DNA of 64,000 nucleotides from Bacillales bacterium. Its GTDB lineage: Bacteria > Bacillota > Bacilli > JARBTR01. The notes below the pieces were generated by a model. It ran no database searches, was not told where the DNA came from, and was given only the letters and a program-made list of their open reading frames with translations. Made by a program: the position numbers and the translations under genes. Positions 15,228-48,069 of this stretch are shown one piece after another (position 1 is the first letter of the stretch; each line of letters opens with the position of its first letter). The stretch covers positions 15,597-79,596 of the forward strand of contig JAVBKE010000023.1 in the NCBI GenBank assembly GCA_031554185.1, written 5' to 3'.

Positions 15228-15664
15228 TTCTCCTCCTTTGATAATTCAGCTAACCCATATTTTTTAACTAGTCTATCTAGTGGATAATCATCTTTAGGCC
15301 ATTGGCAGGTACTGAGCATTGAACGGTTACGGAACTCGTTAGCTGTTATTCTTTCTTCAAACCAACTGAATTTGTAGTTACTCCTATCCCAGCCATCAGG
15401 GTCTAAGATCTGGAATACTGGACTTTCAACCAACCTAACCCAGTCAGAACTTGTTAGTTTGATTACCGCCTTATCTACTTGTTGTTGGACTAGGGTGTCA
15501 ACATATTTATAGATAGCCTCTAGCTCAATCCTGCTGCGGTCGAACTCATCTTCGCTTGGCGGTAAGGATTCGAACTCACATTCAATTTTATCTAGGTGGC
15601 ACATACAGTAACCCATGATGTGTTCTATTCTGTCTCTAGCTTCTATATACTCTGGGTCGTTCAT
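15224..15664 (-). CDS. hypothetical protein
   Basis: 146-aa ORF, start/stop overlap with neighbours. Confidence 0.45.
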   Translation of the reverse strand: MNDPEYIEARDRIEHIMGYCMCHLDKIECEFESLPPSEDEFDRSRIELEAIYKYVDTLVQQQVDKAVIKLTSSDWVRLVESPVFQILDPDGWDRSNYKFSWFEERITANEFRNRSMLSTCQWPKDDYPLDRLVKKYGLAELSKEEK

Positions 15665-31730: not shown

Positions 31731-32663
31731 ATGCCAGTAAATAATTCTATCGAGAGAGTCAAACACTCAGTTGAGAACTTCTTTGGAATAAAGCCAAAAA
31801 CGAAGTTCAAAATGTTAGAAGAAAATATTTCTGTAAAATTAGTTGATGGAAGCTACCAAACATGGGAACAACTACTTGAATCAATTCCAAGTTTTGTTTC
31901 AGCGACATGGGGTTTAAAAACAGAGTTTTCTGAAGAAGAAAAAGAAGAAATCGTTATGAAGATGTTTAAGAACGAACATCTTCCAGGAGCTCAAGAAACT
32001 TTTAGATTTACGTTTTTGGTAGACAACATGACATATGTAGAGGTCAGCCATTTTTTGAGGCATCGTGAAGTAACATTCTCTGCGGTCTGCACTGGAGATA
32101 GAAATCTTGCCCAAGACGACATATTGATTCCTGAATCAATAATGAACATGCCAAAACTTTGTAAAAAGTATATGGAAACTTGCCAGATTCAAAAAGAATT
32201 GTATCAAGAAGCAGTTGATTCAAAATTGGTGTCTCATATGGATGCACGATATATGCTTCCAAAGTCAACAAGGCAAACATACTTTATGAGTATGGATTGG
32301 CGAACTCTTGTGAAGATCATCAATCAAAGGATGGATCGACAAATTCAGCCAAAGGGAGATAACTTGATTGCATATGGAATGTGGAATGCAATTCTCGAAG
32401 CTTATCCAAAATTGAAAGAATTGAACATAGTAAACGTTGATTCGATGAACAAGTTTTATGTTGCAAATGCTCGAAAAGAGATGACGACTAATTTGTATTA
32501 TCCAGAAAAACAAAATGATGTTTTCGATTTTAGAGAAGACGACTTTGTTTATCAAGGAAATCGAGAAGATTTTAATGGAAAAGCTCCAAAAGGAACTTCT
32601 TCAAAATTCCAAAAACTTCTTGAAAAATACCGAGAAAAGTTTAATGGAAAAACAGATAGTTAA
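31731..32663 (+). CDS. thyX: flavin-dependent thymidylate synthase (ThyX)-like
   Basis: LRHREVTFS RHR motif; spacing differs from canonical RHRx7S. Confidence 0.45.
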   Translation: MPVNNSIERVKHSVENFFGIKPKTKFKMLEENISVKLVDGSYQTWEQLLESIPSFVSATWGLKTEFSEEEKEEIVMKMFKNEHLPGAQETFRFTFLVDNMTYVEVSHFLRHREVTFSAVCTGDRNLAQDDILIPESIMNMPKLCKKYMETCQIQKELYQEAVDSKLVSHMDARYMLPKSTRQTYFMSMDWRTLVKIINQRMDRQIQPKGDNLIAYGMWNAILEAYPKLKELNIVNVDSMNKFYVANARKEMTTNLYYPEKQNDVFDFREDDFVYQGNREDFNGKAPKGTSSKFQKLLEKYREKFNGKTDS

Positions 32664-33462
32664 AGACAAATACTTAAACTTATTTGTTTATTATGTGAAT
32701 ATGGCAATGGGGGACAAAAAGTCTCCCATTGATCTTGTAGCAAAAAAATTAAATCCTGTGTTTGATTTTCCCGACCCAAGAAGAGAAAAACAGCCAATGG
32801 CGATATTATGCTTTGAAATCCAAAAACAACATAATTATTCTAACGAAGAGCTATTTAACCTGATAGTATTTTCTAGATTGTGCTGGAATCCAGAAACGAT
32901 AGAATACATTACATATTTATGCAGACCATCGATAGAAAATCTTGAAAATGGAAAGTTCGAACAAGCGTGTATTGACACAAAGAAGAAGAAAAATAAGTTC
33001 TGGTCTAATTCTTATATGCCACCAGGTTGCACAAACTTTAGTGACTTATGCAATGTATTGAAAGAATTGTTTTATGAAGTTTTTAAAAAAGATCTTTCTG
33101 CTGAAGAAGCATACATGACAATAAATTCAAAAAAAGGACTTGGGCAATTTTATTCAAACCTTCTAGTTTCCGATATTCATTTTTGTGTTAAAGAATTCAG
33201 AGAATTCGACAAGTATTTCCCGAAACCAGGAAGCGGAGCAATTGAAGGTTATAAAAAAATAACTGGAAAGAAATATGACAAGGAAAGCTTTGCCAGAAGC
33301 ATTCTAGAGGTCCAGGATAAACTTAAAGAGCTAAATATGGATTTACACTATACTCAAATAGAAGATGAATACTGTGAGTTCAACAAGTACTTAAGAGAAT
33401 TTGAGAAAGTTTCAAAAAAGTCTCAAGAAAGAATCATAGACAATATTTACTTTTTGAAATAA
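32644..33462 (+). CDS. hypothetical protein within nucleotide-metabolism cluster
   Basis: start ATG 32644 overlapping upstream gene by 20 nt. Confidence 0.4.
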   Translation: MEKQIVKDKYLNLFVYYVNMAMGDKKSPIDLVAKKLNPVFDFPDPRREKQPMAILCFEIQKQHNYSNEELFNLIVFSRLCWNPETIEYITYLCRPSIENLENGKFEQACIDTKKKKNKFWSNSYMPPGCTNFSDLCNVLKELFYEVFKKDLSAEEAYMTINSKKGLGQFYSNLLVSDIHFCVKEFREFDKYFPKPGSGAIEGYKKITGKKYDKESFARSILEVQDKLKELNMDLHYTQIEDEYCEFNKYLREFEKVSKKSQERIIDNIYFLK

Positions 33463-33498
33463 TAGGTTTAAAATTAAATCAAGATTAAGGAGGGAAAT

Positions 33499-34092
33499 AT
33501 GGAAGAAGATCTGTTAATTGAATTACGAGAAAATGGTTGTTTACAAGTATTTCTCAAGATAAATGATTCTAACCTTTACAAACAATTTAATGTCAATCGA
33601 TGGTCTGGTAGGCAATTTATTAAGGAACAAAACGATGGAGAGCATCATGCGATTGTTGCTCAAACTATAGTTAAAGTTTGTGAACATTATGACAAACAAT
33701 TGACATTCGAGCAAAAATATAAAGCGCTAGCCCTTGGTTCGATTCATGATTTAGGTGAAATCGAGACAAATGACATCTCTCATGTTTTTAAGCAAAAGCA
33801 TCCAGATATCAAGAAAAAACTTGAAGAATTAGAAGATGAAATCATATCGTCAATTCCAGGATATGAAACTATTTACACGGAAGCAATAAATGATCCGGTG
33901 ACTGAGGCGATTTTTAAAATCGGAGATAATATCGATTGTTATCTTTATACAGGAAGAGAAATTGAGCTTGGCACGAAGAATAAAGAGTTAATTCAAATAC
34001 ATAAAGATTCTGGAAAACGAGTTTCTCAATGGATTGAAAGACTTGATAATTTGATCAATAACAAGGAAGCAAAGCATGTCGAAGACCACTAA
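33499..34092 (+). CDS. HD-domain phosphohydrolase (5'-deoxynucleotidase-like)
   Basis: H..H ... LGSIHDLGE ... D pattern; AAGGAGGG RBS. Confidence 0.55.
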   Translation: MEEDLLIELRENGCLQVFLKINDSNLYKQFNVNRWSGRQFIKEQNDGEHHAIVAQTIVKVCEHYDKQLTFEQKYKALALGSIHDLGEIETNDISHVFKQKHPDIKKKLEELEDEIISSIPGYETIYTEAINDPVTEAIFKIGDNIDCYLYTGREIELGTKNKELIQIHKDSGKRVSQWIERLDNLINNKEAKHVEDH

Positions 34093-39090: not shown

Positions 39091-39184
39091 TTAACAATCA
39101 AAATACAGGGAATTAGGCTAATGGTAAACCTTTGGATTCCAAACCCAACATTTACAGTTCAAATCTGTAATTCCCTGCCAATAT

Positions 39185-39261
39185 GCCACTTTAGCTCAGC
39201 TGGTTAGAGCAACTGCTTTGTAAGCAGTAGGTCCTCGGTTCGAATCCGAGAAGTGGCTCCA
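39185..39261 (+). tRNA. tRNA-Thr: tRNA-Thr (anticodon TGT)
   Basis: acceptor gccactt/aagtggc, anticodon stem actgc/gcagt loop tttgtaa, T arm ctcgg-ttcgaat-ccgag, CCA encoded. Confidence 0.75.
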
Positions 39262-39264
39262 AAT

Positions 39265-39278
39265 AAAGTATTTACTTT
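39265..39278. promoter_or_regulatory. operator-like palindrome AAAGTATTTACTTT
   Basis: inverted-repeat motif between first tRNA and rest of array. Confidence 0.4.
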
Positions 39279-39439
39279 TTAATATAAGTGAATTATAATA
39301 ATTAAGAACTTTAAAAATTAACAACTGGCGGACAAGGCTTTGGCGCAAGTATAAGAGATTGAAAAATTGAGTCTCAGTTTTCACACTGGAAAATTATACG
39401 TTAAATAGCGATGGGTAGCGAGTGGCCAGTTTCAAGCAT

Positions 39440-39513
39440 AGCAGGGAAAGATTTGGTAATCTATCTTGTCTCATAAGCAAGAGGTGAAGGTTCGATTCCT
39501 TCCCTTGCATCCA
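39440..39513 (+). tRNA. tRNA-like, CAT anticodon (Met/Ile2), non-canonical
   Basis: anticodon stem cttgt/gcaag loop ctcataa, T arm gaagg-ttcgatt-ccttc, CCA; A1.A72 mismatch, short D loop, extra nt at position 26. Confidence 0.3.
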
Positions 39514-39519
39514 ATTTGA

Positions 39520-39594
39520 TGGGCGATGGTGTAATGGTTAGCACAGAACTTTCATACGGTTCAAGTCAAAGTTCAACTCTTTGTTGCCCAACCA
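39520..39594 (+). tRNA. tRNA-Met: tRNA-Met/Ile2 (anticodon CAT)
   Basis: acceptor tgggcga/ttgccca, D loop aatggtta, anticodon stem gaact/ggttc loop ttcatac, T arm caaag-ttcaact-ctttg, CCA. Confidence 0.7.
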
Positions 39595-39601
39595 AAAACA
39601 T

Positions 39602-39677
39602 CAGGGTAAAGTGTTGATGGTAACACACTCGGCCTGGAACCGAGAGATTGTGAGTTCGACCCTCGCAACCCTGACCA
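39602..39677 (+). tRNA. tRNA-Pro: tRNA-Pro (anticodon TGG)
   Basis: acceptor cagggta/aaccctg, anticodon stem ctcgg/ccgag loop cctggaa, T arm gtgag-ttcgacc-ctcgc, CCA. Confidence 0.75.
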
Positions 39678-39749
39678 CGAGAGTTAGTGTAAATGCTAAC
39701 ACGCTTTCCATAGGGGAAAGAAAAGGTGGTTCAACTCCATCACTCTCGA
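39678..39749 (+). tRNA. tRNA-like, undetermined isotype (anticodon loop cATAGGg; TAG if canonical)
   Basis: perfect acceptor cgagagt/actctcg, D stem gtgt/acac with D loop aaatgcta (no GG), anticodon stem ctttc/gaaag, T arm ggtgg-ttcaact-ccatc, A73, no CCA; position 33 is A. Confidence 0.4.
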
Positions 39750-39755
39750 ACATGA

Positions 39756-39841
39756 GCTAGAGCGACGAAGTGGGAGAGTCGTGGCAGACTGTAAATCTGT
39801 TCCCGTTGGGTGAGTAGGTTCGAATCCTACCTCTGGCACCA
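39756..39841 (+). tRNA. tRNA-Tyr: tRNA-Tyr (anticodon GTA), long variable arm
   Basis: acceptor gctagag/ctctggc, anticodon stem gcaga/tctgt loop ctgtaaa, long variable arm, T arm gtagg-ttcgaat-cctac, CCA. Confidence 0.75.
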
Positions 39842-39847
39842 AATTAT

Positions 39848-39921
39848 AGGGGATTAGTATAATGGTAGAACGTTGCTCTGATGTGGCGAAGGTATAGGTT
39901 CAATTCCTTTATCCCCTACCA
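39848..39921 (+). tRNA. tRNA-Ile: tRNA-Ile (anticodon GAT)
   Basis: perfect acceptor aggggat/atcccct, anticodon stem ttgct/ggcga loop ctgatgt, T loop ttcaatt, CCA. Confidence 0.7.
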
Positions 39922-40316
39922 AAAAAGCACATTAACAAGTGATTATATAGTTTTATGAGCAAATGAGTCGAACGAAAGTTTAACGCTCTGTTTTCAAACA
40001 GGAACCTCATTTGTTCAGGTAAATTACACGTGGTGGAAAATTAGGTAGACACTATAGGACGCAATAAGTATCGGGAAAAGATGGTAGCGTTGTGGAATGT
40101 AACACCCAGATTTTCTTCTAAGTACACGAAGAAAGATTACGTTGGCGGTAACTGGCAACAGATTGCGTCAAGGGAGCATCCGCGCCGGTGACTCGATATA
40201 TGCAAGGTTAACTATTCTAGTTGCAATGTAAGCTAGAATATTCTCTATGAGATATTTGAATAAAGCTATTGCCTAGACAAACCCTTGCCGTGTTATTTCA
40301 TAGAACTATATAATTA

Positions 40317-40391
40317 GCCCACATAGTGAAACGGATATAATATTAGTCTTCGAAACTAAAGTTTCAGGTTCGAATCCTGATGAGGGCACCA
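40317..40391 (+). tRNA. tRNA-Arg: tRNA-Arg (anticodon TCG)
   Basis: acceptor gcccaca/tgagggc (one mismatch), anticodon stem ttagt/actaa loop cttcgaa, T arm tcagg-ttcgaat-cctga, CCA. Confidence 0.65.
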
Positions 40392-40396
40392 AATTT

Positions 40397-40471
40397 GCAA
40401 GTGAAGTGTTTATGGTTGCACTTCTGCCTTCCAAGCAGAGAGACAGAGTTCGAATCTCTGCACTTGCACCA
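40397..40471 (+). tRNA. tRNA-Gly: tRNA-Gly (anticodon TCC)
   Basis: perfect acceptor gcaagtg/cacttgc, D gtgt..gcac, anticodon stem tctgc/gcaga loop cttccaa, T arm cagag-ttcgaat-ctctg, CCA. Confidence 0.8.
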
Positions 40472-40475
40472 ATAA

Positions 40476-40552
40476 GCTCCGGTAGCTCAAATGGATAGAG
40501 TAATAGGTTTCTACCCTACAGGTTGGGGGTTCGAATCCCTCTCGGAGTACCA
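40476..40552 (+). tRNA. tRNA-Arg: tRNA-Arg (anticodon TCT)
   Basis: acceptor gctccgg/tcggagt, anticodon loop tttctac, T arm ggggg-ttcgaat-ccctc, CCA. Confidence 0.65.
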
Positions 40553-40563
40553 TTAACAATTTA

Positions 40564-40638
40564 GGGGTGTTCGTATAACGGTTATTACTGTTGCTTTGCA
40601 AGCAACGAACCAGAGTTCGACTCTCTGACACTCCACCA
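40564..40638 (+). tRNA. tRNA-Ala: tRNA-Ala (anticodon TGC)
   Basis: acceptor ggggtgt/acactcc with G3.U70, anticodon stem gttgc/gcaac loop tttgcaa, T arm cagag-ttcgact-ctctg, CCA. Confidence 0.75.
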
Positions 40639-40644
40639 AAACGA

Positions 40645-40720
40645 GCGGGTATAGCCAAGTGGTTAAGGCGCTGGATTTTCATTCCAGTATTCGTCGGTTC
40701 GAATCCGTCTACCCGTACCA
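40645..40720 (+). tRNA. tRNA-Glu: tRNA-Glu (anticodon TTC)
   Basis: acceptor gcgggta/tacccgt, anticodon stem ctgga/tccag loop ttttcat, T loop ttcgaat, CCA. Confidence 0.75.
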
Positions 40721-40723
40721 AAT

Positions 40724-40801
40724 GCTTCTCTATCCCAACTGGCAGAGGAGAACGGCTCAAACCCGTTTAATGTCTCAGTTCGAATCTGAGGAGAAGCACC
40801 A
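40724..40801 (+). tRNA. tRNA with Leu anticodon CAA but short (6-nt) variable arm
   Basis: perfect acceptor gcttctc/gagaagc, anticodon stem aacgg/ccgtt loop ctcaaac, T arm ctcag-ttcgaat-ctgag, A73, CCA. Confidence 0.55.
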
Positions 40802-40804
40802 TAC

Positions 40805-40889
40805 GCATAAGTGGTGGAACTGGTATACACGCGTGTCTTAGAAGCACGTGCCGAAAGGATTGAGAGTTCAAGTCTCTCCTTATGCACCA
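40805..40889 (+). tRNA. tRNA-Leu: tRNA-Leu (anticodon TAG), canonical long variable arm
   Basis: perfect acceptor gcataag/cttatgc, anticodon stem cgtgt/gcacg loop cttagaa, 13-nt variable arm, T arm gagag-ttcaagt-ctctc, CCA. Confidence 0.8.
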
Positions 40890-40893
40890 ACAA

Positions 40894-40969
40894 GCTTCTG
40901 TAGCCCAAAGGCAGAGGCAAACGACTTAAGATCGTTAAAGTGTTGGTTCGACTCCAACCAGAAGCACCA
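40894..40969 (+). tRNA. tRNA with Leu anticodon TAA but short (5-nt) variable arm
   Basis: perfect acceptor gcttctg/cagaagc, anticodon stem aacga/tcgtt loop cttaaga, T arm gttgg-ttcgact-ccaac, A73, CCA; canonical 76-nt class I cloverleaf. Confidence 0.6.
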
Positions 40970-41024
40970 GCGCATGTACTGGTAAGATGATATAATAAGT
41001 GTATTATCTAAAAGGAATAAATAT

Positions 41025-41210
41025 ATGCTCTTAACAGTTTTCGCAGCAGTAATCGTAATACTATTGTTTGTATTATTCATAAGGCTGATAGCCTCGTTGT
41101 TTTCTACAGCGATTCGACCATTATCAGAAAAGAATAATTCAGTTTACACAATTGTTACAGCGATTTTAGCTGCATTAGCACTATGGTGGCTATTGTCACT
41201 AGTGCTGTAG
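41025..41210 (+). CDS. small hydrophobic membrane protein (61 aa, 2 predicted TM) embedded in tRNA array
   Basis: ORF MLLTVFAAVIVILLFVLF... between tRNA blocks; weak RBS. Confidence 0.4.
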   Translation: MLLTVFAAVIVILLFVLFIRLIASLFSTAIRPLSEKNNSVYTIVTAILAALALWWLLSLVL

Positions 41211-41212
41211 AT

Positions 41213-41298
41213 GGAAGATATCCGGCCGGATGAGGACACCGCTTTGAAAGCGGCTGGGTGTTAAAGCCTTCAGGGTTCGAGTCCCTGGTCTTCCGCCA
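41213..41298 (+). tRNA. tRNA-Ser: tRNA-Ser (anticodon TGA), long variable arm
   Basis: acceptor ggaagat/gtcttcc, anticodon stem ccgc/gcgg loop tttgaaa, long variable arm, T arm caggg-ttcgagt-ccctg, G73, CCA. Confidence 0.75.
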
Positions 41299-41301
41299 AA
41301 T

Positions 41302-41377
41302 GCCCATATAGTGTAGCGGTTTGCATACTTCCCTGTCACGGAAGAGGCCACGGGTTCAAATCCCGTTGTGGGCGCCA
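41302..41377 (+). tRNA. tRNA-Asp: tRNA-Asp (anticodon GTC)
   Basis: acceptor gcccata/tgtgggc, anticodon stem cttcc/ggaag loop ctgtcac, T arm acggg-ttcaaat-cccgt, G73, CCA. Confidence 0.8.
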
Positions 41378-41382
41378 GATAA

Positions 41383-41457
41383 TGCGTATTCGTCCAACGG
41401 TTAGGACATCGGACTTATATTCCGACAACATCAGTTCAACTCTGATATACGCTACCA
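41383..41457 (+). tRNA. tRNA-Ile: tRNA-Ile (anticodon TAT)
   Basis: acceptor tgcgtat/atacgct (U1.U72 mismatch), D gtcc..ggac, anticodon stem tcgga/tccga loop cttatat, T arm atcag-ttcaact-ctgat, CCA. Confidence 0.6.
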
Positions 41458-41462
41458 AGTAA

Positions 41463-41538
41463 GCTCCCTTAGCTCAATGGCTAGAGCGCCCTCCTTACAA
41501 GTGGGAGGTTCCTGGTTCGAATCCAGGAGGGAGTACCA
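41463..41538 (+). tRNA. tRNA-Val: tRNA-Val (anticodon TAC)
   Basis: acceptor gctccct/agggagt, D gctc..gagc, anticodon loop cttacaa, T arm cctgg-ttcgaat-ccagg, CCA. Confidence 0.75.
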
Positions 41539-41543
41539 AGTAA

Positions 41544-41617
41544 TCCCTTGTGGTGAAATGGTATCACAATTGGCTGTTAACCAATCATTTCAGGTTCAAG
41601 TCCTGGCGAGGGAGCCA
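41544..41617 (+). tRNA. tRNA-Asn: tRNA-Asn (anticodon GTT)
   Basis: acceptor tcccttg/cgaggga, D gtga..tcac, anticodon stem attgg/ccaat loop ctgttaa, T loop ttcaagt, G73, CCA. Confidence 0.8.
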
Positions 41618-41623
41618 AAATAT

Positions 41624-41699
41624 GGTGAGCATAGTGTAATAGTTCGCACGTCACCCTGTGAAGGTGAAGGAACTGGTGCAAATCCAGTTGTTTACCCCA
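41624..41699 (+). tRNA. tRNA-His: tRNA-His (anticodon GTG) with G-1
   Basis: extra 5' G pairing with C73 (His identity), acceptor gtgagca/tgtttac, anticodon stem tcacc/ggtga loop ctgtgaa, T arm actgg-tgcaaat-ccagt, CCA. Confidence 0.8.
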
Positions 41700-41704
41700 A
41701 ATAG

Positions 41705-41780
41705 TAGGAAGTAGCTTAATCGGTAGAGCATCGAGCTTTGAACTCGAAGGTTGCAGGTTCGACCCCTGCCTTCCTAGCCA
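41705..41780 (+). tRNA. tRNA-Gln: tRNA-Gln (anticodon TTG)
   Basis: perfect acceptor taggaag/cttccta, anticodon stem tcgag/ctcga loop ctttgaa, T arm gcagg-ttcgacc-cctgc, G73, CCA. Confidence 0.8.
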
Positions 41781-41784
41781 AATT

Positions 41785-41877
41785 GGAAGATTGGCGGAGC
41801 TTGGTTTATCGCACTTCATTGCTAATGAAGCGTGTGGAGAGATCCCACCGTAGGTTCGAATCCTGCATCTTCCGCCA
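41785..41877 (+). tRNA. tRNA-Ser: tRNA-Ser (anticodon GCT), long variable arm
   Basis: acceptor ggaagat/atcttcc (identical to the other Ser tRNA), anticodon stem cttca/tgaag loop ttgctaa, long variable arm, T loop ttcgaat, G73, CCA. Confidence 0.8.
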
Positions 41878-42015
41878 AATTGTTTACTTTAAATCTTTCG
41901 TGTGATATAATTCTTAATATGATTAACTTAACCTGTAAAACAACCAAAAAGTTTACGATCTCCAGTCGGAGAAACGATTATTTGGTTTAATATCTAGTTA
42001 AAAAATCATAAATCG

Positions 42016-42041
42016 AACTCCGGCTGATAGCGGAGTTTTTT
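42016..42041 (+). terminator. rho-independent terminator inside tRNA array
   Basis: aactccg-gctgatag-cggagtt hairpin plus TTTTTT. Confidence 0.5.
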
Positions 42042-42045
42042 ATTT

Positions 42046-42120
42046 GCCCCCATAGCTCAATGGTAGAGCACCATCCTTGTAAGATGGCGACGAAAGTTCG
42101 ATTCTGTTCTGGGGGAGCCA
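42046..42120 (+). tRNA. tRNA-Thr-like (anticodon TGT), irregular T-arm/acceptor (possible pseudo-tRNA)
   Basis: acceptor gccccca/tggggga with G1.A72 mismatch, perfect D stem gctc/gagc, anticodon stem ccatc/gatgg loop cttgtaa, T loop ttcgatt with weak stem and an extra c, CCA. Confidence 0.45.
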
Positions 42121-42123
42121 AAC

Positions 42124-42197
42124 GGGTTGATAGTTCAACGGTAGAATAACTGGCTCTTAACCAGTCCACGAAGGTTCGACACCTTCTCAGCCCACCA
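42124..42197 (+). tRNA. tRNA-Lys: tRNA-Lys (anticodon CTT)
   Basis: acceptor gggttga/tcagccc, anticodon stem actgg/ccagt loop ctcttaa, T arm gaagg-ttcgaca-ccttc, CCA. Confidence 0.75.
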
Positions 42198-42205
42198 AAA
42201 TATAT

Positions 42206-42280
42206 GCCTTCGTAGCATAGAAGTAAATGCACCTGCCTGAAGAGCAGGGGAATACAGTGCGATTCTGTACGTTGGCACCA
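42206..42280 (+). tRNA. tRNA-Phe: tRNA-Phe (anticodon GAA)
   Basis: acceptor gccttcg/cgttggc (two U.U mismatches at 4:69 and 5:68), perfect D stem gcat/atgc but D loop lacks GG, anticodon stem cctgc/gcagg loop ctgaaga, T arm tacag-tgcgatt-ctgta, CCA. Confidence 0.65.
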
Positions 42281-42284
42281 GTTT

Positions 42285-42358
42285 GGATCCTTGGCTTATC
42301 GGCTGAGCACTTGGCTTTTAACCAAGCGAGAGAGGTTCGACTCCTCTAGGATCCACCA
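42285..42358 (+). tRNA. tRNA-Lys: tRNA-Lys (anticodon TTT)
   Basis: perfect acceptor ggatcct/aggatcc, anticodon stem cttgg/ccaag loop cttttaa, T arm agagg-ttcgact-cctct, CCA. Confidence 0.8.
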
Positions 42359-42362
42359 TTAT

Positions 42363-42438
42363 GGCGTTGTGGGGGAGTGGTTTCACCCGTGTGCCTGCAA
42401 AGCACAAGACGTTGGTTCAAATCCAACCTGCGCTTCCA
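42363..42438 (+). tRNA. tRNA-Cys: tRNA-Cys (anticodon GCA)
   Basis: anticodon stem tgtgc/gcaca loop ctgcaaa, T arm gttgg-ttcaaat-ccaac, U73 discriminator (Cys identity), CCA. Confidence 0.75.
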
Positions 42439-42475
42439 TATTCACATTAAAGATTATTTGTTGTAGAATATTTCT

Positions 42476-42790
42476 ATGGAGAAAATTAGAGATTCTACCG
42501 GATGTCCTCCGGATATTTGCGGGACAGATGAATGTTTTGTTTTTAGAACAACTGGTGAATGCTTTGAAGATATTCATCATGAATTTCACCCTAGGAGAGA
42601 ATACAAAACAGGACTCGAAAGAAAGTTTCGAGAAATACCAGAGTTTAAAACTATTTTGTGCAGAGCTTCACATCAATTGATTCATGCAATGATCGATAAA
42701 AGAATTGAACCTTTGCCAGAAAAACCAGATCGCGTATTCATGTTAAACGCACTGCAAGAAGCACGACGATCAACAATGGTCAATAATTAA
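42476..42790 (+). CDS. HNH endonuclease
   Basis: CPPDICGTDEC...HHEFHPRREY...LCRASHQLIH HNH/Zn motifs; flanks tRNA array. Confidence 0.55.
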   Translation: MEKIRDSTGCPPDICGTDECFVFRTTGECFEDIHHEFHPRREYKTGLERKFREIPEFKTILCRASHQLIHAMIDKRIEPLPEKPDRVFMLNALQEARRSTMVNN

Positions 42791-42810
42791 TATACTTTCA
42801 CTAGACACTA

Positions 42811-42819
42811 TGGTATAAT
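42811..42819 (+). promoter_or_regulatory. extended -10 promoter TGGTATAAT
   Basis: TGnTATAAT upstream of SLT gene. Confidence 0.35.
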
Positions 42820-42985
42820 TGATCAGTCCAATTTTGAAAAGATAGTTTCTAATATTAGATAAATTATCCTATTATTCTGAGGACAAATATGAGTAGAAAT
42901 AAACGAACAATACAAGTTCCGCAAACGAAATTCATCACGACTAATTTTAGTCGTGTTTTTATTTGTGAACAAAAAAGGAGCGAAA

Positions 42986-43717
42986 ATGCTTAAATTAAAA
43001 CAATCTTTAAAAGGCTTTAAACAAAAGCTCAGACGTAAACACACACCAATGACGAAAGAAAAATTATCAAAACGTCTTAAAGTTTTGAAATGGATAATTT
43101 TGTTTTTGGTTCTTTCTGTTTTAGTGGCAATTGTATTTAACATAATACAAAGTGGAGAAATCAATAAGAGACAAAGAGAGATTGAAAATCGACAAATCCA
43201 AATTGAGCAAATCGACACAAAGTTAAATGACTCCAGGAAAAAACTTGACGATCAAGAAATCACTGTTCAAGAATATCAAAAAGAAGTCGATAAGTTAAAC
43301 AAAGAAAAAGAAGACCTGAATTCACAACTACAAGCAAAAGTTGAACGGCAGAAGCAAGAACAAATTGCATACGCCGAATCACAAAAGAAAGTTTCAGTTC
43401 AACAAACAGTCTCTCAACCAGTTCAATCTTCACCTCAAGTTTCAGGATCAAAAGCGGATTGGTTAGCTGCTTCAGGAATTCCTCAAAGTGAATGGGGGTA
43501 TGTTGATAGCATTGTTACAAAAGAAAGTGGATGGAATCCAAATGCAGTTAATTCTAGTTCTGGGGCATGTGGTCTAGGTCAACAACTTCCATGCGGAAAG
43601 TGGGCAGGAGCTTGGAATGATCCAGTCGCTGCTTTAGTTGCGATGAATGGATATGTTCAAAAATATGGTGGTTGGGCAGGAGCTGTGTCATTCTGGCAAA
43701 CTAATAGGTGGTATTAA
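42986..43717 (+). CDS. membrane-anchored lytic transglycosylase (SLT domain) with coiled-coil
   Basis: N-terminal TM helix, coiled coil, C-terminal ESGWNPNAVNSSSGACGLGQ (SLT ES...GLxQ motif); ATG 42986 after AAGGAG (track start 42953). Confidence 0.6.
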   Translation: MLKLKQSLKGFKQKLRRKHTPMTKEKLSKRLKVLKWIILFLVLSVLVAIVFNIIQSGEINKRQREIENRQIQIEQIDTKLNDSRKKLDDQEITVQEYQKEVDKLNKEKEDLNSQLQAKVERQKQEQIAYAESQKKVSVQQTVSQPVQSSPQVSGSKADWLAASGIPQSEWGYVDSIVTKESGWNPNAVNSSSGACGLGQQLPCGKWAGAWNDPVAALVAMNGYVQKYGGWAGAVSFWQTNRWY

Positions 43718-43725
43718 GGAGTCAT

Positions 43726-43821
43726 ATGAAAATTTCTAAAACAATGTTTCCAAAAAGATTTAAAAAAGCAGAACTTCCAAAAGAAGGCATTAAAGTTAGT
43801 ATGTACTTCGAAGAATCATAA
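43726..43821 (+). CDS. small basic peptide (31 aa)
   Basis: AAGGAG RBS 5 nt upstream of ATG, terminator hairpin immediately downstream. Confidence 0.35.
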   Translation: MKISKTMFPKRFKKAELPKEGIKVSMYFEES

Positions 43822-43840
43822 TTAACTACAAACAAATTTG

Positions 43841-43866
43841 AGCATCGAAAGGTGCTCTTTTTAATT
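43841..43866 (+). terminator. rho-independent terminator
   Basis: gagca-tcgaaagg-tgctc hairpin plus TTTTT. Confidence 0.45.
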
Positions 43867-43868
43867 AA

Positions 43869-43882
43869 AAAGTATTTACTTA
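43869..43882. promoter_or_regulatory. operator-like palindrome AAAGTATTTACTTA followed by ttagcatagataatatataat promoter
   Basis: inverted-repeat motif; same architecture as the site at 48823. Confidence 0.4.
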
Positions 43883-44025
43883 TTAGCATAGATAATATAT
43901 AATGCTTATATCAATCTAATATAGGATTGAAGAACATTTACCACTACTTAGATAGATTAAGGCGAAACAAATTTCAATTCGTGAGAGAAATTGAAGTGTG
44001 AGGGTAGGTCTTAATCTATCATCTT

Positions 44026-44100
44026 GCTTGCGTAGCTCAGAGGCAGAGCGCTTCCCTGTCACGGAAGAGGTCGAGATTTCAAAATTCTTCGTAGGCGCCA
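44026..44100 (+). tRNA. tRNA-Asp-like (anticodon GTC), diverged second copy outside main array
   Basis: acceptor gcttgcg/cgtaggc, perfect D stem gctc/gagc, anticodon arm identical to the array tRNA-Asp (cttcc-ctgtcac-ggaag), weak T arm gaga-ttcaaaa-tctt, G73, CCA. Confidence 0.45.
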
Positions 44101-44829: not shown

Positions 44830-47800
44830 ATGAGTGAATTAAAGTCTAGCGATTTTGTATATCTCCACAATCACACAGAAATGGGCTCACTTTTAGATGG
44901 ATTGTCTAAAATTGATGAAATGGTTGAAAAGGTCAAAGAATATGGAATGGTTGCATGTGGTATTACTGATCACGGAAGAATGGCAGGAGCGCTAGATTTT
45001 TACAAGAAATGCAAGCAAAATGGAATAAATCCAGTCATTGGATGTGAATTCTATGTTGCAAAAAGAAAACACACTGACAAAGAACCAGAAGATAAACCAA
45101 GGTCCCACTTAACTGTTCTATGTATTTCAAATCAAGGTTGGAAAAACCTTTGTGAATTAAATTATAGGGCAGGAAAAGATGGATTTTACTATAAGCCAAG
45201 GATTGACAAAGAGTTATTGCTTAAGTGCAAAGAGGGTTTAGTTGTTCTTTCTGGTTGTGCAAGTGGAGAAATCGGTGAAGCATTAAAAATCGACGATTAC
45301 AACACAGCAAGAGAAATAGCTTTATGGTATAAAGAAAACTTTGGAGAAAATTTTTATTTAGAGATTCAGATGCATGGTCACAAAGATTTCCATAAACACT
45401 GGGACGTTCAAGGAAAAATTAATGATGGGCTTGACAGGTTGTCAAAGGAGTTGGACATTCCCCAAGTGTTGACAGCTGACTCTCACTATGTCAATAAAGA
45501 CGATACATATAATCATGAAATTCTTCTTTGTATTGGTACAGCTTCGAATTATGACAACCCAAACAGAATGAGTTTGCAGAATTTTGACTTGAGTTTAACT
45601 GATCCTCAAGTTGTCATTGACTTATTCGGAAAAACTCATCCAGAAGCGATAAGAAATACAAAAAGAATAGCAGACCAAAACACTCTTGAAATTGAAATGG
45701 ATAAAACTTATGTTCCAACATTTTTGTGTCCTGATGGATTGTCAGAAAAAGATTACCTGAGAAGACTTACATGGAAAGGTTTGACAAAGAGATACTTGAA
45801 CACAGAGGTAGAAACTGAGGAAGAAGCTAAAAAAATCTTAAGTAAAGAGATTATAGATCAAACTGAGTATGAATTGTCGACAGTGAATAAACTCGGATAT
45901 AACGGATATTTCTTAATCACTCAAGAATTCATCGTTTGGGGAAAAGATAGAGGAATTTTGTTTGGACCAGGACGAGGATCAGCTGCTGGAAGTATCGTTT
46001 GCTATGCACTAAGAATCACAGAGATCGATCCAATTGAAGCAGACCTAATGTTCGAAAGGTTTTTGAATCCCGATAGACTTTCTATGCCAGACATAGACAC
46101 AGATATTCAAGACTCAAGAAGAGATGAAGTTTTAGATCATTGTAAAGATTTATATGGTAATGAGAACGTTACGTGCATCGGTGTCTTTGGAACACTTCGA
46201 GCGAAAAATGCAGTAAGAGATGTTGCAAGAGTTTTGGAGTACCCGTATACTGAGAGTTTAAAGCTTTCTAAAATGATCTCAGATGCTCAGCATAATGGGG
46301 GAAACTATCTTCCAAATGAAATTAAAGAAAATGAAGACTTTAAAAAAGAGTATGAAGGAAGTTCTGAAGTAAGAAAAATTGTAGATACAGCAATAAAACT
46401 TGAAGGAAATCATAGAACTCATGGTGTTCATGCTTGCGCAGTTGTTATTAGTCCAAAACCGATTTATGAATATATGCCTTGTGAAGCAGCTCAAAACGGA
46501 GAAATGGCAACTCAGTTTGCAATGCATGATGTCGAAGAACTAGGACTTTTGAAGATGGACTTTTTAGGACTTTCAACCTTGACAGTTATTGATAACACAG
46601 TGAAAATGATTAAAAAAACAAGAGGAGTTGATGTTGATATTCACAATATTCCTTTAGATGATTATGAAACTTATAAGTTATATCGAGAAAAACGAAGCAA
46701 CAATACATTTACGTTCAACTCTCCAGGAATGAGAGCAACATTGGCGGGTTTAGAGGCGGACAATTTCGAAGATCTTGTTGCAACGAATGCGCTATACAGG
46801 CCTGGTCCTATGCAATATATAGGAAGTTATATCAAAAGAAAAAAGGGAACAGAGAAAATTAAGTATCTTCTAAAAGGAAGTGAAAAATTTCTTTCTAAAA
46901 CTTATGGGTACATAGTTTACCAAGAACAATGGATGCGCATTTGTGAGTTTTACGGTTTTCGTGGTGGAGAGCTCGACAACGCAAGGAAAGCAATTGCAAA
47001 GAAAAATGTTGCTTTGATGGAAGTTGTTAAAGAAAAGTTTTATGCTGGTGCAATGGAACACGGAAACAGTAAACAAACGATTGATACTTTTTGGAATGAA
47101 CTCCTAGATTTCGCAAATTACTCGTTTAATAGATCCCATGCATATGCATATGCCTTAGTTGGATATCAAACAGCTTATTTGAAAGCTCATTATCCAGCAG
47201 AGTATATGGCATCAATAATGATTAATGTCAAGGGTGACAAAGAGAAACTTGAAACAGCTATTTCAGATGCAAGGTCAGAAGGAGTAAAAGTTAATCCTCC
47301 AAATGTTGTTGAATCAGATATTGACTTTACTGTGAACTCAAAAGGAGAAATTGTTTTTGGTCTCTCTGCGATAAAAGGAATTGGAAAAAGTGCAGATATA
47401 ATTGTCGAAAAAGCAAATGGAAAAGACATAAAAACATTGGAAGAGTTCTTGTCGTTGTTTCCAGGATCTGAATTGAATAAGAGGTCCCTAGAAGGTCTTG
47501 CAAAGTCAGGAGCACTAGATAATTTCGGAGACAGGTATGCTCTAGTTTTTAGTTTAGGCGAGATAAGTGAGCAAAGAGCACTGATAAATAAAGAGTTTAA
47601 TAAAGTTAACAAAGATCAAACATCACTATTAGACGGAATAGAAGATTTTACAGTTACTAAGTTAAATATAATCAGGCCACCAAAAATAGACAGAGCAAAG
47701 ATGTTTCAAGATGAAAGAGAGTACATCGGAACATATGTTTCTGGCCACCCTTTAGATGATTATGAATCAAAGGTGAAAAATAAACCTGGAACAAATATTT

Positions 47801-48069
47801 GGACAGGTGTGATTGGTTTGATATCTTCAAAAAGAATAATTACTACTAGGTATGGAGATAAGATGTGTTTCTTGGTGATTGATTCAAAGAAGGAGGAATT
47901 TGAAGTTACAGTTCCTCCAAAGGTATATAAAATTAAGTCACACGAATTAAAAGAAAATCATCCACTATTGATGTCTCTAGAAAGAAAAGAAACAGAATCA
48001 GGACAGGTAAAGTGGTCAATGGTTGATTCACGAGATTTATTGGCCACTGATGCATTATTGAATAAATAA
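44830..48069 (+). CDS. dnaE: DNA polymerase III alpha subunit (DnaE-type, PHP N-terminus)
   Basis: N-terminal PHP motif FVYLHNHTEMGSLLDG, 1079 aa, polymerase-core and OB-like regions. Confidence 0.85.
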   Translation: MSELKSSDFVYLHNHTEMGSLLDGLSKIDEMVEKVKEYGMVACGITDHGRMAGALDFYKKCKQNGINPVIGCEFYVAKRKHTDKEPEDKPRSHLTVLCISNQGWKNLCELNYRAGKDGFYYKPRIDKELLLKCKEGLVVLSGCASGEIGEALKIDDYNTAREIALWYKENFGENFYLEIQMHGHKDFHKHWDVQGKINDGLDRLSKELDIPQVLTADSHYVNKDDTYNHEILLCIGTASNYDNPNRMSLQNFDLSLTDPQVVIDLFGKTHPEAIRNTKRIADQNTLEIEMDKTYVPTFLCPDGLSEKDYLRRLTWKGLTKRYLNTEVETEEEAKKILSKEIIDQTEYELSTVNKLGYNGYFLITQEFIVWGKDRGILFGPGRGSAAGSIVCYALRITEIDPIEADLMFERFLNPDRLSMPDIDTDIQDSRRDEVLDHCKDLYGNENVTCIGVFGTLRAKNAVRDVARVLEYPYTESLKLSKMISDAQHNGGNYLPNEIKENEDFKKEYEGSSEVRKIVDTAIKLEGNHRTHGVHACAVVISPKPIYEYMPCEAAQNGEMATQFAMHDVEELGLLKMDFLGLSTLTVIDNTVKMIKKTRGVDVDIHNIPLDDYETYKLYREKRSNNTFTFNSPGMRATLAGLEADNFEDLVATNALYRPGPMQYIGSYIKRKKGTEKIKYLLKGSEKFLSKTYGYIVYQEQWMRICEFYGFRGGELDNARKAIAKKNVALMEVVKEKFYAGAMEHGNSKQTIDTFWNELLDFANYSFNRSHAYAYALVGYQTAYLKAHYPAEYMASIMINVKGDKEKLETAISDARSEGVKVNPPNVVESDIDFTVNSKGEIVFGLSAIKGIGKSADIIVEKANGKDIKTLEEFLSLFPGSELNKRSLEGLAKSGALDNFGDRYALVFSLGEISEQRALINKEFNKVNKDQTSLLDGIEDFTVTKLNIIRPPKIDRAKMFQDEREYIGTYVSGHPLDDYESKVKNKPGTNIWTGVIGLISSKRIITTRYGDKMCFLVIDSKKEEFEVTVPPKVYKIKSHELKENHPLLMSLERKETESGQVKWSMVDSRDLLATDALLNK

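Follow-up and report, generated by a model that had tools for sequence, protein, structure and literature searches.

Does a tRNA gene that has a leucine anticodon but lacks the long variable arm of a leucine tRNA still encode a leucine tRNA, or does it bring something else to UUA and UUG codons? Two genes in a 64,000-nucleotide (nt) stretch of DNA, hereafter the window (positions 15,597 to 79,596 of contig JAVBKE010000023.1, assembly GCA_031554185.1), raise this question. The window is assigned by its gene content to an uncultured tailed phage; in it, tRNA-Leu(CAA) (40724-40801) and tRNA-Leu(UAA) (40894-40969) have short variable loops, and a long-arm tRNA-Leu(UAG) (40805-40889) lies between them. 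Most bacterial tRNA-Leu are of the long-arm kind (class II, or type II; PMC6614811). A sequence-only reading of the window had presented the two short-arm genes as an anomaly, to be explained by codon-usage compensation or by deliberate recoding. We find that both probably encode functional type I (short-arm) leucine tRNAs, which host leucyl-tRNA synthetase (LeuRS) would charge and which would supply decoding of UUA and UUG. Most likely, they are ordinary leucine tRNAs of uncommon but known architecture and not a recoding device.

ARAGORN placed the three genes at exactly the coordinates that had been proposed for them, 3 to 4 nt apart inside an array of 30 tRNA genes (39107-44100, all on the plus strand; ARAGORN and Rfam). 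All three exceeded the gathering score of Rfam RF00005 (29 bits), with 43.9 bits (E 6e-9) for the 78-nt CAA gene, 61.3 bits (E 3e-13) for the 76-nt UAA gene and 55.4 bits for the 85-nt UAG gene, whose arm was shown as an insertion. In the CAA gene, the acceptor (GCUUCUC/GAGAAGC, 7 of 7 pairs), anticodon (AACGG/CCGUU, 5 of 5) and T stems (CUCAG/CUGAG, 5 of 5) are fully paired, with an anticodon loop CUCAAAC, a 6-nt variable loop UAAUGU and a T-loop UUCGAAU. The UAA gene is built likewise (acceptor GCUUCUG/CAGAAGC, 7 of 7; anticodon AACGA/UCGUU, 5 of 5; T GUUGG/CCAAC, 5 of 5) and has an anticodon loop CUUAAGA with G37, a 5-nt variable loop AAAGU, a leucine-type D-loop and a canonical T-loop. The two genes resemble each other closely: their acceptor stems differ in one pair only, and they share an identical D-arm with a 3-bp stem, a C13.A22 mismatch and a D-loop that reads A14 A15 C U G18 G19 C A20a G21 in the CAA gene. 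Both have a 7-nt anticodon loop with U33, an encoded CCA and all of U8-A14, A15-U48, G18G19, A20a, U54-A58 and A73.

The variable arm of the UAG gene is 13 nt long (UGCCGAAAGGAUU). The gene has A73, encodes the CCA and shares 85.9% identity with the tRNA-Leu annotated in Pseudomonas phage EM. With class II defined by a variable arm of more than 10 nt that contains a stem, 40805-40889 belongs to that class, and 40724-40801 and 40894-40969 do not. The latter two fall within type I tRNA-Leu, defined by a stemless variable region of 4 to 6 nt and by a NAG or YAA anticodon in a 7-nt loop with U33. Every structural detail of the sequence-only reading (perfect acceptor and anticodon stems, canonical T arms, variable loops of 5 to 6 nt, A73) was correct on parsing. 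ARAGORN and Rfam moved neither anticodon and revealed no overlooked long arm, and among the alternative folds of the two genes none shifted the anticodon or yielded a long arm. The result lies well outside chance. A minus-strand reading was rejected: the Rfam "Plastid-ycf2" matches there were sub-threshold mirror images of the tRNAs, and the T-loop and CCA fix the plus strand.

The short arm is not peculiar to this window. A pattern made from the 5' halves of the CAA and UAA genes brought up further viral contigs, which carry short Leu(UAA), Leu(CAA), Leu(CAG) and Leu(GAG) genes, and blastn against cultured phages returned 74- to 77-nt genes already annotated as tRNA-Leu. Their carriers include Streptomyces phages of the BE cluster (CeilingFan gene 114; 81% identity over 74 nt between the window UAA gene and the BE-cluster tRNA-Leu(taa)), Mycobacterium phages of cluster M (MrMagoo genes 119 and 120; 79% identity), Pseudomonas phage PPSC2 (tRNA-Leu(caa), 74% identity over the full length), Myxococcus phage Mx1, Synechococcus phages (Sf-FR1) and Gordonia phage Nedarya. 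In the comparison with phage tRNA sets proposed by the sequence-only reading, the short-arm leucine genes proved to be nothing unusual: they recur across cultured and uncultured phages.

We then used a pattern that is blind to the anticodon, CCAA-N1-2-GGCAGAG-N28-31-GTTCGANTC, which covers the D-arm and the T-loop at a spacing that permits only a short variable loop. It matched at least 120 IMG/VR contigs and, in one genome per GTDB species, at least 120 bacterial loci; the counts that follow, here and below, are among the matches listed. All 140 of the 140 viral tRNAs had leucine anticodons (UAA 82, CAA 27, UAG 20, CAG 6, GAG 5), as did 114 of the 121 bacterial ones. The bacterial loci were overwhelmingly on Actinomycetota chromosomes (Nocardioides, Nocardia, Mycobacterium, Corynebacterium, Rhodococcus, Amycolatopsis and other genera), with some in Planctomycetota and scattered ones in other phyla. 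At 98 of 120 loci the gene was the only tRNA, so the bacterial members are ordinary chromosomal genes and not parts of arrays. A metagenome scan with a 5' half like that of the window genes gave nine contigs, all of them tRNA arrays and most with a short Leu(UAA) and a short Leu(CAA) as neighbors.

Positions outside the pattern were conserved as well. U48 and A73 occurred together in 138 of 138 phage and 114 of 114 bacterial members, U8 was almost invariant, and the variable loop, with the consensus ACAGU, was 5 nt long in 125 of the 138 phage and 108 of the 114 bacterial members. Based on these matches, we place the window CAA and UAA genes in a widespread type I tRNA-Leu family of phages and Actinomycetota. 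Within the family, a G1.U72 wobble was present in 58% of phage members (80/138) versus 15% of bacterial chromosomal ones (17/114), and G37 in 9 of 81 phage versus 1 of 57 bacterial UAA isoacceptors; the window UAA gene has G37 but G1-C72. On one viral contig with such a gene (IMGVR_UViG_3300044728_000147, our L002; 99.6 kb, 25 tRNA genes), a tmRNA gene (430-792, tag AEFSLIAA) lies just upstream of the short-arm tRNA-Leu(CAA).

We aligned 107 members with mutual identity below 85%; the window CAA and UAA genes form rows 1 and 2 and aligned without rearrangement. In the short-loop cloverleaf, 97.9% of cells were paired and 724 cells were changed on both sides. The covariation score was 0.958, compared with at most 0.167 for slid partners and 0.219 for shuffles. 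The type I tRNA-Leu family is thus under strong selection as tRNA.

This selection bears on the idea that the CAA and UAA genes are unused relics of the tRNA array. The CAA gene does score below most of its neighbors in RF00005, and the array does hold one aberrant member, a short tRNA-like gene whose anticodon position reads UAG (39678-39749, plus strand; ARAGORN). That gene has A33 in place of U33 (loop CAUAGGG), a D-loop (AAAUGCUA) without G18G19 and no encoded CCA, it adjoins tRNA-Pro with no spacer, and RNAfold prefers for it a 6-bp stem with a 5-nt loop. By these features it falls outside the type I leucine family, and the pattern search found no relative of it in IMG/VR; it may be a copy in decay, or else a tRNA-like RNA that serves a different purpose. 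The stems of the CAA and UAA genes, however, are fully paired, their T-loops are canonical and their tertiary positions intact, and both genes encode the CCA. Half of the leucine codons have no other phage-encoded reader, the family of the two genes is under strong structural selection, and neighboring short-arm UAA and CAA genes recur in other arrays. Decay is accordingly the least probable of the explanations that we weighed, and the functional leucine set of the array would consist of UAA (type I), CAA (type I) and UAG (type II).

Genes of this kind may escape automated annotation. With its speed filters on, Rfam skipped both 40724-40801 and 39678-39749 in a 5.2-kb stretch, even at E<=1. 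It skipped 40724-40801 once more in a 261-nt stretch that does not contain the other gene. Searched alone, both genes were recovered, at 44 to 45 bits (45.2 bits for 39678-39749). Automated Rfam annotation could therefore under-call type I tRNA-Leu genes.

What, then, would charge the short-arm tRNAs? The sequence-only reading had asked for a check of LeuRS identity elements. In Escherichia coli, LeuRS is reported to use A14, A15, G18G19, A20a, U48 and A73 and not to recognize the anticodon (PMC9976931), and every element of this E. coli-type set is found in the CAA and UAA genes. The long arm appears dispensable: its sequence and folding are described as uncorrelated with leucylation (PMC9976931; PMC6614811), and minimalist, arm-deleted E. 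coli tRNA-Leu substrates stay active (Larkin et al. 2002, as summarized in PMC9976931). The range of anticodons in the phage family, five or six leucine anticodons drawn from both codon boxes and none for another amino acid, is what is expected of LeuRS, the one synthetase that ignores the anticodon. A natural precedent is known from Streptomyces coelicolor, whose type I tRNA-Leu(CAA), with the 5-nt loop ACAGC, is leucylated by its own LeuRS and by human mitochondrial LeuRS (PMC6614811). At position 48, this tRNA has C48, whereas the phage and Actinomycetota family has U48, part of the A15-U48 pair reported to be needed by E. coli LeuRS. A looser D-loop motif, AA-N1-2-GG-Y-A-R-A, was rejected as a leucine marker because it matched 58 of 730 non-leucine tRNAs and only 12 of 25 long-arm leucine tRNAs.

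The codons that these tRNAs would read are abundant, as had been supposed for UUA. Among the 929 leucine codons of 39 long open reading frames (ORFs) in the window, which has about 35% G+C, CTT made up 32%, TTA 30%, TTG 20%, CTA 10%, and CTG and CTC 4% each. TTA and TTG, of which the CAA gene reads UUG and the UAA gene UUA and UUG, together make up 50%, and codon-usage compensation is a reasonable reading of this abundance. We infer that the 30-gene array would be transcribed and then processed, that host LeuRS would charge both type I tRNAs via A73 and the elbow, and that these tRNAs would decode UUA and UUG, half of the leucine codons in this AT-rich genome, to the benefit of the phage through codon supply. 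The type II tRNA-Leu(UAG) would cover the CUN codons.

To see what UUA and UUG mean in the phage, we used its DnaE-like DNA polymerase III alpha subunit (44830-48069, plus strand, 1,079 amino acids; PHROGs and precomputed Pfam domains). The protein was aligned with 60 homologues, and the mean percentage of leucine was taken over the columns that correspond to each codon. It was 71% for TTA and 55% for TTG, compared with 72% for CTT and 50% for CTA; the values for other codons were 16% (ATT), 7% (TTT), 3% (GTT) and 2% (AAA). In this phage, then, UUA and UUG stand for leucine. It uses the standard code, and its gene calls and translations can be left as they are.

These values also bear on recoding, in which another synthetase or a phage factor would load a residue other than leucine, and UUA and UUG would be reassigned or ambiguous during infection. 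Nothing speaks for this beyond the structural unorthodoxy of the two genes and A35 and A36, which the UAA and CAA anticodons have in common with tRNA-Phe(GAA). TTA and TTG equal CTN codons in how often they meet columns conserved for leucine, and they do not line up with phenylalanine or another residue. The genes are no recoding or suppressor tRNAs in the usual sense either, because their anticodons read sense codons. The all-leucine anticodons of the phage family argue against recoding as well, as do the lack of G3.U70 (alanine) and of a long arm (serine, tyrosine) and anticodons unsuited to any anticodon-reading synthetase. A Pfam scan of 20 ORFs in the window, which covers all but about 30 kb of a 94.6-kb genome (a 94,592-bp contig in NCBI encodes the exact polymerase protein), revealed no synthetase domain; the only window ORFs of at least 800 amino acids encode the DnaE-like polymerase and a 1,496-amino-acid protein without a Pfam match. 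Deliberate recoding, as raised by the sequence-only reading, is therefore highly improbable.

Several points weigh against charging by the host LeuRS and a working role for the two tRNAs. In vitro, the type I tRNA-Leu(CAA) of S. coelicolor was not charged by E. coli LeuRS (PMC6614811), so not every bacterial LeuRS accepts the type I form; according to the same article, the leucine-specific domain of LeuRS decided acceptance. The codon alignment shows what the phage genes expect, not what the CAA and UAA tRNAs deliver. The UAA gene has G37 where readers of UUR codons usually have A37. Finally, the protein most similar to the phage polymerase is a DnaE encoded on the chromosome of Candidatus Saccharibacteria/Nanosynbacter (about 48% identity along 96% of the length, compared with about 37% for other phage DnaE), a hint, but no more, that the host may be one of the Saccharibacteria (TM7) or a relative; none of the bacterial matches listed was a Saccharibacteria genome, and the tRNA-Leu and LeuRS of the host may be tuned to type II. 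On the other hand, phages of Pseudomonas, Synechococcus and Myxococcus carry the family too, which argues that the type I form is usable by many bacterial LeuRS. On balance, we favor leucine tRNAs charged by the host enzyme.

How common is the loss of the arm, and does it affect other long-arm tRNAs? Counts from our leucine-derived patterns would be biased toward leucine, so we collected phage contigs with a pattern that fits only G73 (non-leucine) tRNAs and counted the class II isotypes on them. Short arms were found in 19 of 57 tRNA-Leu, and in none of 61 tRNA-Ser or 17 tRNA-Tyr. Seryl-tRNA synthetase and, to a lesser degree, bacterial tyrosyl-tRNA synthetase use the long arm, and LeuRS does not. 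Loss restricted to leucine fits this difference, since LeuRS, unlike the other two, has no need for the arm. It can be seen as a natural confirmation of the LeuRS identity rules established in vitro.

The 19 short genes also extend beyond the family defined above. The strict anticodon-blind pattern matched none of them, and several short-arm phage tRNA-Leu genes (L313, L345, L347 and others) retain the D-arm usual for type II (GUGGUGAAAUUGGUAAACAC-like, with G13.A22). Armless tRNA-Leu of phages thus goes beyond one family, and it probably arose more than once, by separate losses in several phage lineages and not by descent from a single armless ancestor. Judging by about one-third of phage tRNA-Leu in one small sample and by many Actinomycetota chromosomes, armless tRNA-Leu would be much more frequent than textbooks imply, and the type I genes offer a natural substrate set for asking which bacterial LeuRS accept type I tRNA-Leu.

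Such repeated loss could have been favored by host defense. Host or abortive-infection enzymes that choose class II tRNAs by the arm (DUF1814 AbiEii/MenT-type nucleotidyltransferases, nucleases) would miss a short-arm tRNA; this is compatible with leucine charging. According to a preprint (10.64898/2026.01.19.700257), AbiEii probably prefers long-arm class II tRNAs, like MenT3, and phage tRNAs are known to evade tRNA-targeting defenses by sequence changes (PMC10264068). The frequency of short arms in the sample not chosen through leucine, although most bacterial tRNA-Leu is type II, the spread over phages of Pseudomonas, Synechococcus and Myxococcus, and the type II D-arms that suggest repeated loss would all suit this explanation. 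However, we know of no arm-dependent defense enzyme that acts on tRNA-Leu, and many Actinomycetota have the short-arm form as an ordinary chromosomal gene in single copy, which needs no defense rationale. The phage itself retains a long-arm tRNA-Leu(UAG) along with long-arm tRNA-Ser and tRNA-Tyr, and loss of the arm may be neutral, as LeuRS does not need it. We consider escape from such enzymes unlikely, and equally doubtful its consequence that leucine decoding would continue once host tRNA-Leu is inactivated.

The broader proposal is that repeated, leucine-only loss of the arm across phages of very different hosts is adaptation and not neutral drift, giving a tRNA that can be charged yet is hidden from arm-selecting enzymes. 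It may be cited together with the enrichment of G1.U72 among short-arm phage leucine tRNAs, and it too is improbable in our estimate. If it were true, leucine decoding would outlast the defense response.

The assignment to a tailed phage follows from ORFs in the window for a large terminase subunit, a DNA ligase, tail proteins, a CHAP+VanY lysin and the DnaE-like polymerase. No close phage relatives were found in INPHARED (cultured phages) or IMG/VR. In a megablast search of the tRNA array against cultured phages, the sole match was 69 nt of the long-arm leucine gene to Pseudomonas phage EM, and an IMG/VR search with the DnaE-like polymerase returned no related locus. The best tblastn matches of the polymerase were unannotated "Bacteriophage sp." contigs from human feces (about 37% identity); MT835501, the single one of these contigs that we examined, has no tRNA genes.

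Other parts of the window and of the array deserve mention. A 61-codon ORF for a very hydrophobic peptide (41025-41210, plus strand) occupies the 243-nt gap between tRNA-Leu(UAA) and tRNA-Ser(UGA); in Streptomyces phage CeilingFan, small membrane-protein genes are likewise scattered among tRNAs. The array contains two tRNA(CAU) (39440-39594), a tRNA-Ile with the rare anticodon UAU (41383-41457) and duplicates of Thr(UGU) (39185 and 42047) and Asp(GUC) (41302 and 44026), the final Asp gene lying 1.6 kb past the remainder. Upstream, three adjoining genes (31731-34092, plus strand) resemble a thymidine hypermodification module. They encode a ThyX-like protein (Thy1; 31731-32663), a protein with the helical domain of 5-hydroxymethyldeoxyuridine DNA kinase (HMUDK_hel; 32515-33462) and an HD/YfbR-like 5'-deoxynucleotidase (33499-34092), all on the plus strand and assigned by Pfam. 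This trio suggests that the phage DNA may contain a modified thymine.

Type I leucine tRNAs have been described before. A bacterial one is published from S. coelicolor (Fan et al. 2019, NAR, PMC6614811), they are frequent in Actinomycetota, and armless phage tRNA-Leu genes are already routinely annotated, so the anomaly that the sequence-only reading had seen does not hold for bacteria or phages. The open-access literature that we searched held no paper on phage tRNA-Leu without the long arm, although this was one library and is not proof of novelty; the frequency of armless tRNA-Leu in phages and the restriction of arm loss to leucine seem under-described there.

The S. coelicolor tRNA-Leu(CAA) resembles the window genes in its bacterial cloverleaf, normal D- and T-loops, short variable loop, leucine anticodon and A73. 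Its variable loop is ACAGC (5 nt), compared with AAAGU (5 nt) and UAAUGU (6 nt) in the window. In contrast to the S. coelicolor and other actinobacterial genes, those in the window are phage-borne and AT-richer (acceptor GCUUCU...). Position 48 is U in them and C in S. coelicolor, and one of them has a 6-nt loop. We computed homology to other actinobacterial and phage members only, and the S. coelicolor tRNA was compared by description. The tRNA-Leu genes annotated in cultured phages share the D-arm, U48, A73 and the short loop and often adjoin other leucine isoacceptors in arrays, but they belong to different phages and hosts.

Canonical class II tRNA-Leu, as in E. coli and at 40805-40889, has the same D-loop framework (A14 A15 N N G18 G19 Y A20a), a mismatch at 13:22, A15-U48 and A73. 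It differs in a variable region of at least 13 nt with a stem, compared with 5 to 6 nt, and in a G.A at 13:22 where the two window genes have C.A. Animal mitochondrial type I tRNA-Leu(UUR) also combines a short variable loop with A73 and a UAA anticodon; mitochondrial tRNAs, however, have degenerate D- and T-loops and a dedicated LeuRS, whereas the elbows of the window genes are canonical. S. coelicolor LeuRS is reported to have no activity on human mitochondrial tRNA-Leu (PMC6614811). There are also engineered parallels: arm-deleted tRNA-Leu of E. coli (Larkin et al. 2002, via PMC9976931) and arm-deleted tRNA-Leu(UAA) of S. coelicolor (PMC6614811) are described as chargeable by bacterial LeuRS without the arm, given A73 and the D- and T-loop contacts. 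The armless tRNA-Leu of phages presents the same configuration in a natural, conserved and abundant form.

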